NCBI GenBank assembly: GCA_963789955.1
Contig: CAWBMV010000034.1
Coordinates: 800,001 to 864,000 of the forward strand
Source: an uncultured Candidatus Rokubacteria bacterium
GTDB taxonomy: Bacteria > Methylomirabilota > Methylomirabilia > Rokubacteriales > CSP1-6
Direction: 5' to 3'
DNA: 64,000 nucleotides
Shown: one piece after another, positions 51,781 to 58,411 of the stretch
Numbering within the stretch: position 1 is the first letter of the stretch
How the letters are laid out: the number at the start of each line of letters is the position of its first letter
The notes under the pieces: model-generated
What the model was told of the DNA's origin: nothing
The model's input: only the letters and a program-made list of their open reading frames with translations
The model's database searches: none
Translations under genes and position numbers: made by a program

Positions 51781-53481
51781 GGAGCCGCTGGCGCGGCAGA
51801 GGAGCGGCCAGAGCCTCGTCGAGGCGCTCGCGGCGGCCGCCCCTCGTTACTCTCCCGACGATCGACCGCGCAAGGTCGATGCTCCTGGAGGAGCTCGACG
51901 GCGCCATCGTCCGCGACGCGCGAACGCTTCTTCGCCTGCACGAGACCCTGTGCTTTCTGCAGGCGTACCCCGACGACGCCAAGATTCTCGAGCTGGTCGA
52001 TCGCGCGCTGGAAACGTTCGCGGCCCGGGTCGATCGACTCGGGCCCGCCGCGCGCCGGCGGCTCCACGATTCCGGCGTCGCCCACAGCACGCTCGATTAC
52101 CCCTTCGGCTTTCCGATGGCCCGCTGGCTCGCCGCGCGATTCCCGCGCGAGACCGAGGTGGCCTGGGCCGCGTTCGTAGACGCCGACCGGCTGGACGAGA
52201 CGCTCTCGCTGCTCGCGACCACGGCGGAAGGCGACGCCTTCAGCGAAGGCGGGATGGGGTGGCGGCAGTGGATTCGCGTCGCCAAAGGCGATCGCCGTCT
52301 CAGCGACGTGCAGCTGATCCTGGAATTGTTCGAGCGCGCGCGGCTGCCCGAGGAGACGCGCGACTGGCTCTTCGAGAGCCTCGGTCTGCCGATCCTCTGG
52401 CGGACGCGGGGCGCGGGCGGCTCGAGGACACTCGCGCGGGTCCCGGCGGGCTCCACGTTCTTCCACGCCGGCGCGCTCGAGCGCGGCGACGTCGATCTCG
52501 TCGAGGCGATTCGGGAGCCGCTGCCTCTCAGACGAGCGCCACGGCCGCTCGCCGAGACGATGATCGACGCCGCGCGTCTGGCGATGGCCACGCGCCAGCG
52601 GGAGCTCCACGCGTTCGCGTACCCGAATCCGGACGACGTGCTGGTGGCGGACGCGGGCCGCGGCCTCCGGCTCGTGTTCATCGGCATCGAGCCGGACTTC
52701 CGGCTGCCGCTCGAGGGTTACTACGGCTTCCTGGCGCTGAAGAACGGCGTGCCGGTGAGCTACGGCGGCGGGTGGGAGCTCTTCGGCGCGCTCGACTTCG
52801 CCATCAACATCTTCGCGTCGTTTCGTCAGGGCGAGTCGCCGTACCTGGCGACCCAGCTTCTGCGCGCGTACCGGTTCATCTTCGGCATGCGCACGGTGGT
52901 GATCGACCGCTACCAGCTCGGCCACGAGAGCACCGAAGCGCTGCGCTCGGGCTCGTTCTACTTCTATCATCGGCTCGGTTTCCGCCCACGCGACCCCGGC
53001 GTCGTACGCACGCTCGCCGAGGAGCGGGCGAAGATCGTCGCCGATCCCGCCTACCGCTCGCCGATTCCGGCCCTGAAACGGCTCGCCGCGGCTGAAGTCT
53101 TCCTGACACTCGCCGGCGGTCATCCAGCGCCCGAGGATCGCCTGCGCGCAACGGACGTTTCGGCGCTCGTCGCGCGCTACGTCGCACGCGAGTTTGGCGG
53201 CGACCGCGCCCGGGCCACACGCGACTCGGCTGAGCGTGTCGCGCATACGCTCGGCGCGCGACGGCGCAACACCTGGCCGCCCGGCGAGCGTCGCGCCTTC
53301 GAGCGCATGTCGCTCGTCGCCGCGCTCATTCCGGATCTTTCGGCCTGGTCGCTCGCCGAGCGCCGTGCCCTGCTCGCGGTCATGCGCGCCAAGGGAGGCG
53401 GGACCGAGATGGCCTACGCGCGACGGCTCGATGGGCATGGCCGCCTGCGTCGAAGCCTCGAAGCTGCTCGCGCGCGCGTAG
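51761..53481 (+). CDS. Conserved-looking hypothetical protein with a possible GNAT-like C-terminal region (frameshifts near both ends)
   Basis: Long ORF 51879 onward with LRLHETLCFLQAYPDD, LKNGVPVSYGGG and GSFYFYHRLGFRP; probable true stop KLLARA-TAG at 53481. Confidence 0.6.
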
Positions 53482-53532
53482 CCTCTCCATATCACTGGCC
53501 CGGTGTTCTAGCTCCGGCCTGTAAGTTTTCGC

Positions 53533-53579
53533 TTGACAGGCACTTTCAATACTCCGTATGGTTTCAGCAGATGCTGAAA
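53533..53579 (+). promoter_or_regulatory. Promoter plus palindromic operator of the AbiEi-like gene
   Basis: TTGACA-18nt-TATGGT, overlapped by the perfect inverted repeat TTTCAGCA-GA-TGCTGAAA (53562-53579). Confidence 0.7.
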
Positions 53580-53598
53580 TGTTCGGAGCAAGAGAAAG

Positions 53599-54648
53599 GT
53601 GCTGAAATCCGAGGAGGTTCGGCGACAAGTGGCCCAGAGACTTCGGGAGCTTCTCCCGAAGGCGAAAGGCTGGCAGGAGAGCATCGGCTCCAAAATAGGC
53701 GGACAAGTCGTCGATTTGTTGGCCAGATTCCAGCTGGCCGGCCAGGAGCACACGTTGGTCGTTGAAGTGACGCCTCTCGGCCAGCCACGCCAGATCAGGG
53801 CCGCCGTGACCAGGCTGAACGACATTCGACGGGAGCTTCCGGGCGCCTATCCGATGGCCGGCGCCGTCTATATCGGCCCGCAGAGCGCGCGAATCCTCAA
53901 GAGCAACAACCTCGGCTTCGTGGATCTCTCGGGCAACTGCTACCTCGCCCTGGAGAACGCGCTGATCGAGAAGGAGGGCAAGCGGAACGTCCGGCCCTCG
54001 ACGCGGCCCCTTCGCTCGCTCTTCGCCCCCCGCGCCACGCGCGTGATCCGCGTGCTGCTGGTCGAGCCCGACCGGGCGTGGCGGCTGGAGGAGCTCGGGC
54101 GCGCCGCCGAGGTGAGCCTCGGCCACTCGCACAACGTGATCAAGCGACTCGAAGAGCTCGCATGGGTCGAGCGTGACGACAGCCAGCGGTTCCGGCTCTC
54201 GAAGCCGGCCGACCTGCTCGAGGGGTGGTGCGAGTCGTACACGTATCGAGCCAACGAGCGTACCTCGTATCTCGCTCCGGAGCGCGTCACGCGAAAGTTC
54301 ATGGGCGAGGTCGCCCGGGTCGCGGGCGCCGAGGGGCGCCGGTACGCCTTCACCTTGAACGCCGGCGCCGCGTTGCTGGCACCCAGTCTGAGATTGCCGG
54401 CCGTTCACTGCTACCTCGAGGGAGACCCCGCGCCGGTCGCTCGCACGCTCGGGCTGCGACCGGCCGCGGAGGTCGACGGAGCGCTCCACTTGCTCGCGCC
54501 CTACGATCTCGGCGTGTTCTACGGCGCCTTCGAGAAGGGCGGGCTCAAGGTGGTGTGCTTGCCGCAGCTGTACGCCGATCTCGTGCACTACGAGCGCCGC
54601 GGACGGGAGCAGGCCGAGCACCTGCGGCGCGAGGCGATGGGCTACTGA
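53599..54648 (+). CDS. Type IV TA AbiEi-family (DUF2186/AbiEi_2-like) antitoxin/transcriptional regulator
   Basis: GFVDLSGNCYL, wHTH WRLEELGRAAEVSLGHSHNVIKRLEE, LLEGW, YAFT..GA, PQLYADL..RGREQAEHL. Confidence 0.75.
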   Translation: MLKSEEVRRQVAQRLRELLPKAKGWQESIGSKIGGQVVDLLARFQLAGQEHTLVVEVTPLGQPRQIRAAVTRLNDIRRELPGAYPMAGAVYIGPQSARILKSNNLGFVDLSGNCYLALENALIEKEGKRNVRPSTRPLRSLFAPRATRVIRVLLVEPDRAWRLEELGRAAEVSLGHSHNVIKRLEELAWVERDDSQRFRLSKPADLLEGWCESYTYRANERTSYLAPERVTRKFMGEVARVAGAEGRRYAFTLNAGAALLAPSLRLPAVHCYLEGDPAPVARTLGLRPAAEVDGALHLLAPYDLGVFYGAFEKGGLKVVCLPQLYADLVHYERRGREQAEHLRREAMGY

Positions 54649-54672
54649 ACGATCGCGGAAGGAGGTGATCTA

Positions 54673-54711
54673 GTGGCCAAGAAGAAGGCGACGAAGAAAA
54701 AGAAGAAGTAG
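54673..54711 (+). CDS. Lysine-rich micropeptide MAKKKATKKKKK (12 aa)
   Basis: AAGGAGGTGATC SD immediately upstream of GTG; 8 Lys codons; TAG stop. Confidence 0.65.
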   Translation: MAKKKATKKKKK

Positions 54712-54767
54712 ATCCGATCCGATGAGGGCGGCACCGAGCTTGGACACGGAAGGAGGTGAGACGCTCG

Positions 54768-54800
54768 ATGAAGAAGAAGGCCAAGAAGAAGAAGAAGTAG
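54768..54800 (+). CDS. Lysine-rich micropeptide MKKKAKKKKK (10 aa)
   Basis: AAGGAGGTGA SD upstream of ATG; 8 Lys codons; TAG TAA double stop. Confidence 0.65.
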   Translation: MKKKAKKKKK

Positions 54801-54846
54801 TAACGCGGCTGCGCTTGGTGGGGGGTGGCGGCCTCCCACCGTTGAC

Positions 54847-54880
54847 CATGCGGGAGGGGGCCAACGCCCCCTCCCGCGTG
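54847..54880. terminator. Long hairpin between the convergent micropeptide unit and rpmB
   Basis: CATGCGGGAGGGGGC-CAAC-GCCCCCTCCCGCGTG, a 15-bp stem with one G-U pair; a second hairpin lies at ~54817-54840. Confidence 0.65.
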
Positions 54881-57544: not shown

Positions 57545-57964
57545 ATGTCCGGTCCGATGACGGGGACACCGGTGGCGATTTTCAACTCCCATGCGGAGTT
57601 CATCCACTCACTCAAAGACGCCCTCGAGCGTGAGGGACTGACGACTGTTACCGCGCTCCTGGCCGAGATCCAGGACGGCACGCTCGATCTCGTCGCGTTC
57701 CTGGAGACGCACGACCCGCAGGTGATCGTGTACGACCTCCCCCGTCCCTTCGAGCGGCACTGGAACTTCCTGCGGCTCCTGAAGCAGACCCACGGTCTGC
57801 GCAAGAAGGCCTGGATCCTCACGACCACTGACAAGAAGGCGCTGGACGCGGCGGTGGGAGCGTCCGGCGTGATCGAGATCATTTTCGGCGAGCCCTATGG
57901 AGTCGACGAGGTCGTGGAGGCGGTCCGCAACGCGCTGTCAAACGGCCGGCCCGTTGAAGCGTGA
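57545..57964 (+). CDS. Atypical stand-alone receiver-like protein
   Basis: CheY-like layout, PQVIVYD retains Asp, WILTT; acidic pair absent and KP replaced by EP. Confidence 0.6.
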   Translation: MSGPMTGTPVAIFNSHAEFIHSLKDALEREGLTTVTALLAEIQDGTLDLVAFLETHDPQVIVYDLPRPFERHWNFLRLLKQTHGLRKKAWILTTTDKKALDAAVGASGVIEIIFGEPYGVDEVVEAVRNALSNGRPVEA

Positions 57965-57976
57965 GGAGTGACGCGC

Positions 57977-58411
57977 ATGAGTGCGAACCGTTCTTCGCCG
58001 GATCGCGTGTACCTGGGGGGCGTGCGAGTTCTCCTGGTCGACAACTCGCAGTCCATCCGTGAGGTGGTGACCGCCATGCTCGAGGACTACGGCGCGAGCG
58101 TGACCGCGGTCGGCACGGCCGACGAGGCGCTGGAGGTGCTGGAGCGCGAGCGCCCCGAGGTCCTCCTGAGCGCGCTGGCGATGCCGGACAAGGGGGGCTA
58201 CTGGCTCATCGGCAAGGTTCGCGGCCTGCCGCCCGAACGCGGGGGCACGACGCCGGCCGCCGCGTTCACTGGGTTCACCGGTCCCGCGCATCGAGCCAGC
58301 ATCTTGCGCGCCGGGTTCCAGTACCACATCGAGAAGCCAGTCACCTCGGACAACCTCGCCGGGATCGTCGCGCTGCTGGCGCTGAAAGCTCCATCCTCTC
58401 CGCAAGACTGA
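57977..58411 (+). CDS. Stand-alone pseudo-receiver (phospho-Asp replaced by Ala)
   Basis: RVLLVDNS, PEVLLSALAMPDKGGY, PAAAFTG, AGFQYHIEKPV. Confidence 0.8.
   Translation: MSANRSSPDRVYLGGVRVLLVDNSQSIREVVTAMLEDYGASVTAVGTADEALEVLERERPEVLLSALAMPDKGGYWLIGKVRGLPPERGGTTPAAAFTGFTGPAHRASILRAGFQYHIEKPVTSDNLAGIVALLALKAPSSPQD

Follow-up and report, generated by a model that had tools for sequence, protein, structure and literature searches.

In the type IV toxin-antitoxin systems called AbiE, the AbiEi protein represses the promoter of its own gene via inverted repeats (PMC3985639; PMC7319586), repression through promoter inverted repeats is likewise established for Rv2827c (PMC7319586), and related toxins act on tRNA (PMC7450476; PMC10435456). 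The cited parts of three reports describe the family branch considered here only paired with a nucleotidyltransferase (PMC3985639; PMC11375011; bioRxiv 10.64898/2026.01.19.700257). The present analysis concerns a locus of this branch in a 64,000-nucleotide stretch of DNA, hereafter the window, from an uncultured Candidatus Rokubacteria bacterium (order Rokubacteriales, phylum Methylomirabilota; contig CAWBMV010000034.1, positions 800,001 to 864,000), in which the gene of a 349-aa AbiEi-like regulator precedes two very short, lysine-rich open reading frames (micro-ORFs). The original prediction, made from the letters of the window, had seen in it a domesticated antitoxin controlling or partnering tiny cationic effectors.

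The comparison of 81 orthologous loci, read from 79 genomes, and of loci in sister lineages establishes at the level of sequence a fixed cassette consisting of a promoter with an operator, a DNA-binding protein, lysine micro-genes with strong Shine-Dalgarno (SD) sequences and hairpins. It also establishes that the toxin and catalytic residues were lost, together with a selection for charge and a lineage-wise replacement of the regulator. We give about an even chance to the reading that a strongly translated polycation, similar to the tail of histone H1, has its dose set by a domesticated autorepressor, in which case the module is no toxin-antitoxin pair.

The regulator, its operator and the missing toxin

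All the parts listed in the original prediction are present, with the promoter, the genes and the first hairpin on the + strand. A sigma-70-type promoter (53533-53562; -35 TTGACA, 18-nt spacer, -10 TATGGT), the sole one between 52800 and 56000 (one found vs. 0.2 expected), overlaps a symmetric operator of four half-sites (53544-53597; core palindrome 53562-53579), the presumed binding site of the regulator. The regulator gene (53599-54648), recognized from its open reading frame, its Pfam match and its structure model, has a weak ribosome-binding site and is followed after a 24-nt gap by micro-ORF1 (54673-54711; 12 aa, MAKKKATKKKKK, GTG start), conserved across the order and preceded by a 12-nt SD sequence (AAGGAGGTGATC, 54659-54670) complementary to the 16S 3' end of the same genome. 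Micro-ORF2 (54768-54800; 10 aa, read as MKKKAKKKKK) has a 10-nt SD sequence (AAGGAGGTGA, 54750-54759). Two hairpins (54817-54840 and 54850-54877) separate it from rpmB, which adjoins the cassette in convergent orientation in 76 of 78 orthologous loci and is thus not part of the operon.

The operator reads TTTCA - 13 nt - TTTCARC-N4-GYTGAAA - 13 nt - (T/A/C)GAAA, and its outer half-sites stand exactly 13 nt either side of the core palindrome in 60 of 60 complete loci; the TTGAC promoter and the core palindrome were recovered in 60 of 62 orthologous loci, both misses being contigs that end there. In the genome of the window the palindrome occurs as a single copy at up to one mismatch, with 7 sites at two mismatches, and the genome-wide search at up to one mismatch gave no support for a regulon beyond the regulator's own operon, which is therefore its only evident target. 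By analogy with AbiEi, the regulator would bind this operator and repress its own promoter.

A terminator scan detected no + strand terminator between the regulator stop and the micro-ORFs, in line with what had been noted from the letters; the single + strand match is weak, lies inside the coding sequence and is at chance level. Contigs assembled from metatranscriptomes span the regulator stop into micro-ORF1 in three of four runs (3 studies), and the bridging contigs, close to the window sequence, cover 54410-54777 (X1), 54587-54793 (X2) and 54376-54692 (X6). Contig cover is missing over 52000-53500 in three runs and was not counted as evidence, and the high read depth over the micro-ORFs was not used to rank expression, since other organisms' lysine micro-genes contribute to it. 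At 54670-54810, soil metatranscriptome contigs carry many sequences similar to Lys/Ala micro-genes of other organisms, as loose ends and joints, which suggests that genes of this class are frequent in the RNA of soils.

The identification of the regulator as AbiEi-like is sustained by both profile and structure searches. The Pfam family AbiEi_2 (PF09952) matches residues 199-344 with 28.4 bits vs. a cut-off of 21 (E 2.3e-6), and the first Atlas matches of the protein are all PF09952; NCBIfam holds no family for it, and a sequence search of the PDB returned weak winged helix-turn-helix (wHTH) matches only. The AlphaFold model (pLDDT 88.7, pTM 0.61) predicts three domains, namely a PD-(D/E)xK fold (residues 1-122), a winged helix (136-213) and a nucleotidyltransferase fold (228-349). 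Residues 3-129 resemble AF1548, of restriction-endonuclease-like fold (Z 10.5, rmsd 3.0, 108 aligned), and the N-terminal domain also matches NucS/EndoMS (Foldseek E 2.4e-4), while residues 228-349 resemble ANT(2'') (Z 10.4), MenT1 (Z 10.2) and the AbiEi of S. agalactiae (6y8q; Z 8.6, rmsd 2.8, 103 aligned).

The N-terminal region had been read as a PD-(D/E)xK fold deprived of its lysine, and the structure matches bear this out. D39 and E56 are kept and position 58 is never Lys, so that the D39-E56-K58 motif is intact in 0 of 33 orthologues vs. 77 of 134 other AbiEi_2 family members, a comparison that used 130 of the 150 family representatives, the ones 300-400 aa in length. In their C-terminal part the orthologues retain the family residues P301, D303, Q323, Y325, D327, R334, G335 and E337. 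The best reading is that the 349-aa protein descends from an AbiEi_2 antitoxin whose toxin was lost.

Lysine micro-ORFs are present in 81 of 81 orthologous loci (one, two and three copies in 9, 69 and 3 loci, respectively) and begin within 60 nt of the regulator stop in 71 of them. No toxin lies downstream of the regulator in any of these loci, and neither AbiEii (PF08843) nor NTP_transf_8 (PF12281) has a match in the 87%-complete genome of the window. The toxin-less state put forward in the original prediction extends to the whole survey, with the micro-ORFs in the toxin's position and linked to the regulator throughout; the contrary pattern, orthologues with an AbiEii toxin and with micro-ORFs missing or unlinked, was not encountered.

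Among non-orthologous AbiEi_2 loci from the same phylum, 0 of 37 have micro-ORFs. Their next open reading frames match AbiEii or NTP_transf_8 in 24 of 28 loci scanned in a first set, 17 of these matches exceeding the curated cut-off, and in 5 of 6 scanned in a second, the scan having left out two loci and one locus, respectively, and some of the matches falling below the curated cut-off. Plasmid-borne relatives are annotated beside AbiEii toxins in 7 of 15 rows listed.

The regulator gene was matched in 61 of 61 genomes searched and, when the search was extended across the order, in 175 of 182 genomes besides that of the window, a few of these order-wide matches being partial or possible paralogues. 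In a quick, midpoint-rooted tree, 33 orthologues constitute one side of a branch (SH-aLRT 100) with short branches, and the identity of the regulator tracks that of RecG (Spearman 0.97, n = 71 loci). To judge from these comparisons, the regulator is inherited vertically in Rokubacteriales, like a core gene. Two genomes, G025 (L016, L070) and G157 (L250, L251), each hold two orthologous cassette copies, which may reflect duplication or a binning mixture, and L016 lacks rpmB after the cassette. In G228 an AbiEii-like gene (L248; G228:C211, 1444-2124, - strand) lies directly upstream of the regulator promoter, probably as an independent insertion.

The micro-genes and their distribution

The 10-mer AAGGAGGTGA precedes both micro-ORFs of the window, occurs 6 times in the 6.77-Mb genome and pairs with the genome's own 16S 3' end. 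The SD duplex energies are -25.6 and -21.2 kcal/mol for micro-ORF1 and micro-ORF2 vs. -5.8 kcal/mol for the regulator, and eight ordinary genes of the window, the regulator included, range from -5.7 to -13.3 kcal/mol. A pattern of SD sequence, start codon and three lysines matched twice in the window vs. a mean of 0.00 in 100 shuffles. A hairpin covering the first SD sequence, seen in the fold of the window, raised the idea of translational coupling; over 64 loci the opening energy of the first SD sequence is 7.8 kcal/mol (5.2 with the footprint of an upstream ribosome held open) vs. 7.7 kcal/mol for the last.

A hairpin of -12 kcal/mol or lower lies within 62 nt of the last micro-ORF stop in 81 of 81 loci; its sequence motif is near-frozen in 53 of them and differs between families. 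In the window this hairpin (54817-54840) is without a U tract and may stabilize the RNA or bind a protein, while the GC-rich hairpin found by folding at 54850-54877, between the operon and the convergent rpmB, is missing from the canonical terminator list and is the probable shared terminator of the two; the fold of the region of the two hairpins has a z of -4.6. Rfam returned five weak matches only, all far below their gathering scores, leaving a known RNA family unsupported, and a closed loop between the 5' and 3' ends of the mRNA was rejected, as the consensus fold of 53 loci gives a local hairpin only. In family f4 (L041, L043, L045, L047-L060) a separate G-rich hairpin stands behind every micro-ORF, with a loop that is often GTGCAG, and the repeated unit is therefore SD-ORF-hairpin.

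The 1814 micro-ORF codons, collected with a filter that demanded 40% Lys, comprise 1264 Lys and 382 Ala (1646 together), 51 Thr, 49 Arg and 48 Gly; acidic (Asp, Glu) and aromatic residues are absent. This composition shows selection on the micro-ORFs as peptides, for positive charge. In GTDB genomes, a stop-free pattern, one in which no stop codon was specified, corresponds to open reading frames of up to 13 aa in 123 of 131 cases among the matches listed, where the longer ones (16-180 aa) are continuing KKKA repeats. Within the order, a related pattern was matched in 175 of 183 genomes and its reversed controls in 0. The peptides of 10-13 residues are best read as the shortest form in a length series, which apparently passes into histone-H1-like repeats. 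NCBIfam gave no match for three longer peptide variants, low complexity defeating the HMMER filters, and no PDB chain matched the 27- and 47-aa variants, a weak test given their low complexity. A phage origin was considered and set aside, the stop-free pattern having matched 0 viral contigs.

A third copy stands alone in the genome of the window (L252; G000:C6, - strand, start 252638), with a TTG start and 12 aa, flanked by a divergent B12-binding radical SAM gene on one side and a convergent nrdR on the other. It has its own TTGACA/TAGCAT promoter and a terminator-like hairpin and is without the operator, and its equivalents recur across the order.

At least 28 of 80 titled loci lie outside Methylomirabilota, at least 9 of them archaeal, with near-identical MAKKKAAKKKK genes. 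Among the matches listed, the archaeal carriers belong to Woesearchaeota, Methanomassiliicoccales, Methanosarcinales and others, and the other bacterial carriers to Nitrospirota, Brocadiales, Verrucomicrobia, Chloroflexota and Eisenbacteria; 21 of the 28 outside copies are of up to 13 aa and 7 run on as KKKA repeats of 16-180 aa, and their neighbours are mostly unrelated. Four loci (L121, L125, L128 and L141, titled Deferrimicrobiaceae, Acidoferrum, Nitrosocosmicus and Nitrosotalea, respectively) were left out of this count because of their Rokubacteria-type context, and their titles look wrong. Regulator-like neighbours accompany other lysine micro-genes as well (L079, L100, L135, L136): an archaeal copy has a PhoU-domain gene upstream, a Methanomassiliicoccales copy an HTH_20 gene in divergent orientation, and a planctomycete copy a neighbour with a weak HEPN match.

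Exchangeable regulators and the proposed dosing of a polycation

In the sister orders the pattern occurs in 25 of 68 genomes; one locus holds no micro-gene, and in the other 24 of 24 the micro-genes stand behind a wHTH-MNT and HEPN pair, which matches Pfam HEPN and NTP_transf_2. The metagenome loci of this pair with enough flank carry micro-ORFs in 55 of 55 cases (25 of 80 being too short), and in Nitrospirota the wHTH-MNT protein was matched in 40 of 121 genomes, with micro-ORFs in 30 of 30 loci fetched. The versions that occupy this slot lack the motifs of both partners, GS..DxD being present in 0 of 134 MNTs and R-x4-H in 0 of 114 HEPNs (the region was located in 114 of 123). Rokubacteriales also hold eight distant paralogues of the wHTH-MNT protein, which keep an intact motif and are without a micro-ORF (the flank is ample in 7). 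A search of 101 genomes of this order returned no close orthologue of the catalytically dead MNT, the best match reaching 136 bits vs. 187-274 in the main Nitrospirota set.

In another order of Nitrospirota, a coiled-coil and HARE-HTH protein is present in 73 of 81 genomes; of 30 loci fetched, 29 have enough flank, and in all 29 this protein stands before the micro-genes. Example promoters of the wHTH-MNT and HARE-HTH sets, looked at by eye and uncounted, have TTGACA under short inverted repeats. No homology between AbiEi_2 and the sister wHTH-MNT was detected by profile comparison, hhalign giving a probability of 2.4, and the relation therefore looks like replacement rather than orthology. 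The peptide gene is the conserved element, and the regulator an exchangeable one, in a slot filled by three unrelated regulators. Of the two roles offered in the original prediction, control of the peptides fits this evidence; partnership is disfavoured by the stand-alone copy, by the lone copies in other phyla and archaea and by the two unrelated regulators in the same slot.

In the mechanism we favour, one promoter would transcribe the regulator together with one to three micro-genes, and the regulator, acting on the four half-sites of the operator, would keep transcription of the operon near a set point. The mismatch between the poor ribosome-binding site of the regulator and the near-perfect ones of the micro-genes would yield little regulator and much peptide per transcript, so that a low and steady transcript level could sustain a large and steady peptide supply. 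As free polycations, the peptides would most likely neutralize and condense DNA or other polyanions (RNA, polyphosphate).

Several observations weigh against this reading. The RNA support consists of contigs assembled from mixed communities, which reveal neither strand nor level nor a single transcript; the selection of the runs itself used this DNA stretch, and in the fourth run (X5) the cover extends over the whole 5 kb, as that of DNA would. Translation, operator binding and repression rest on inference. The related loci are kin and not independent, so that their counts amount to three or four evolutionary events, not hundreds. The stand-alone copy is without the operator, and the regulator therefore cannot control all peptide output, and most of the 28 copies outside Methylomirabilota, among the matches listed, are without an upstream regulator. 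The genome has five HU/IHF and two spermidine-synthase-family matches, hence the peptide fills no obvious gap, and its role as a replacement for missing polyamine synthesis or missing HU was rejected, the genome having both. Finally, selection for charge fits ribosome binding equally well.

A first rival proposal is that the peptides are ribosomal or ribosome-bound micro-proteins, such as bS22, eL41 or bTHX, whose supply the regulator matches to ribosome number, which we consider unlikely. Their tiny size, basic character, near-perfect SD sequences, core inheritance, presence in both bacteria and archaea and lack of any viral-contig match would suit such proteins, and one archaeal copy (L140) sits after rpl44e-eIF2alpha. 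However, the one to three copies, plus a distant one, are unlike each other, the length of the first copy varies from 11 to 24 aa, with matches of up to 47 and 180 aa elsewhere, the neighbours vary and are mostly non-ribosomal genes, and rpmB, being convergent, lies outside the operon.

The RNA itself or the act of translation could also be the product, as a 30S sponge, a sensor of Lys-tRNA load or an A-R-N protein sponge, with the peptide a by-product; the SD sequences of 10-12 nt, the purine-only AAG tract as open reading frame and the hairpin present in 81 of 81 loci and near-frozen in 53 speak for it. We regard this as quite improbable, given that CGN accounts for 29 of the 49 Arg codons, preserving the charge but interrupting the purine tract, that the use of AAG (95%) is similar to that of ordinary genes here (133/144), and that the hairpin sequence varies between families. 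Moreover, the convergent rpmB leaves no downstream gene to attenuate, and the co-directional downstream gene that defines a leader-peptide attenuator is lacking.

An orphan antitoxin that disarms incoming AbiEii-type toxins, with micro-genes that merely borrow its promoter, would account for the retained C-terminal family residues, and AbiEii-family genes do occur somewhere in 72 of 183 genomes of the order. This is nevertheless very improbable, because none of 17 genomes of the window's genus (the window's genome and 16 others) has an AbiEii match and all keep the gene, two unrelated regulators precede the same micro-genes, and HARE-HTH is no known antitoxin. The least probable account, a toxin-antitoxin-like or anti-phage module in which the AbiEi protein restrains toxic cationic peptides, draws on their place exactly in the toxin's position and on the toxicity that polycations can have at high dose, and it is countered by unpartnered stand-alone copies in the same genome and many taxa, by a locus that is fixed and vertically inherited rather than patchy, and by PADLOC matches that are weak and confined to the wHTH region.

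Rokubacteria have been described as having large genomes in cells of 0.3-0.4 µm, which may imply extensive DNA packaging (PMC5712423). A bolder version of the favoured reading, which we offer tentatively and consider rather unlikely, is that MAKKKAAKKKK (11-13 residues) is an overlooked equivalent of polyamines and protamines in bacteria and archaea, for which dose feedback was built at least three times in Nitrospirota and Methylomirabilota out of DNA-binding proteins that are unrelated to each other and of which two are toxin-antitoxin components in disarmed form. The autorepressor would then be titrated by chromosomal DNA, or displaced on condensation, and output would follow DNA content; in this way Rokubacteria could fit genomes of 6-8 Mb into very small cells.

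As for the setting, the original prediction had placed the locus in a core context between rel and rpmB/recG. The downstream side stood, with rpmB and then recG past the hairpins; rel ends 2.3 kb upstream, with other genes in between. Upstream, a hypothetical gene without Pfam match (51879-53765, + strand) reads through the promoter into the regulator gene, and its relatives end about 100-150 nt before the regulator start; it looks as if it carried a frameshift near the 3' end, real or due to an assembly error. Downstream of recG there are a 139-aa open reading frame without Pfam match (57545-57961, + strand) and a stand-alone receiver-domain gene (57968-58408, + strand).

Comparison with described systems

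A literature search found no account of the peptides or of a cassette of regulator and micro-genes, with subscription journals and supplementary small-protein tables, which may list the peptides, outside its scope. The gene class falls below the size limit of annotation and also below routine proteomics, since trypsin would cut the peptides up. Bacteria and archaea have it in almost the same form, and nearly all genomes of a widespread soil order carry it. Thousands of Rokubacteria genes are annotated as 'type IV toxin-antitoxin AbiEi antitoxin', a function label that would be wrong. The locus would offer a clean example, spanning an entire order, of how parts of toxin-antitoxin systems were domesticated to serve housekeeping control, with three unrelated regulators in the same role, and it makes the packaging of a large genome inside a small cell a testable question.

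The closest relatives of the regulator are the AbiE type IV systems (S. agalactiae AbiEi-AbiEii, COG4861-COG4849 pairs, Rv2827c), with which it shares a winged helix, a C-terminal domain of nucleotidyltransferase fold and inverted repeats over its own promoter; the characterized AbiEi proteins belong to COG5340, while PF09952 presumably corresponds to COG4861. Non-orthologous family members of the same phylum precede AbiEii-type toxins, as in these systems, whereas the regulator of the window has no toxin downstream, behaves as a core gene, carries an additional PD-(D/E)xK domain without the Lys and is followed by micro-peptides as output. By its predicted family, then, the locus is AbiEi_2, yet it fails the defining test of AbiE, having no toxin. 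A similar relation holds for the HEPN/MNT toxin-antitoxin pairs, since the wHTH-MNT and HEPN proteins of the sister orders and Nitrospirota take the same slot before the micro-genes, but in versions that lack both catalytic motifs.

On the side of the peptides, the small basic ribosomal proteins bS22, eL41/eS32, bTHX and bL37 are Arg/Lys-mixed, of fixed length and with single binding sites. The micro-peptides share with such proteins their size and charge, signals for strong expression and the fact that annotations miss them, and differ in being made of Lys and Ala only, variable in length and copy number and encoded outside ribosomal operons. With the histone-H1-like polycations, namely AlgP of Pseudomonas and the chlamydial Hc1/Hc2, they share the Lys/Ala low complexity, and their longer homologues are KKKA repeats; AlgP binds DNA and localizes to polyphosphate granules (PMC9239181). 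Unlike these polycations, the peptides described here have 10-13 residues and no folded domain, and lie in tandem copies behind an autoregulator. The parts belong to families already known; the module as a whole, in which an exchangeable and disarmed autoregulator would dose a polycation of 10-13 residues, matches no system found.

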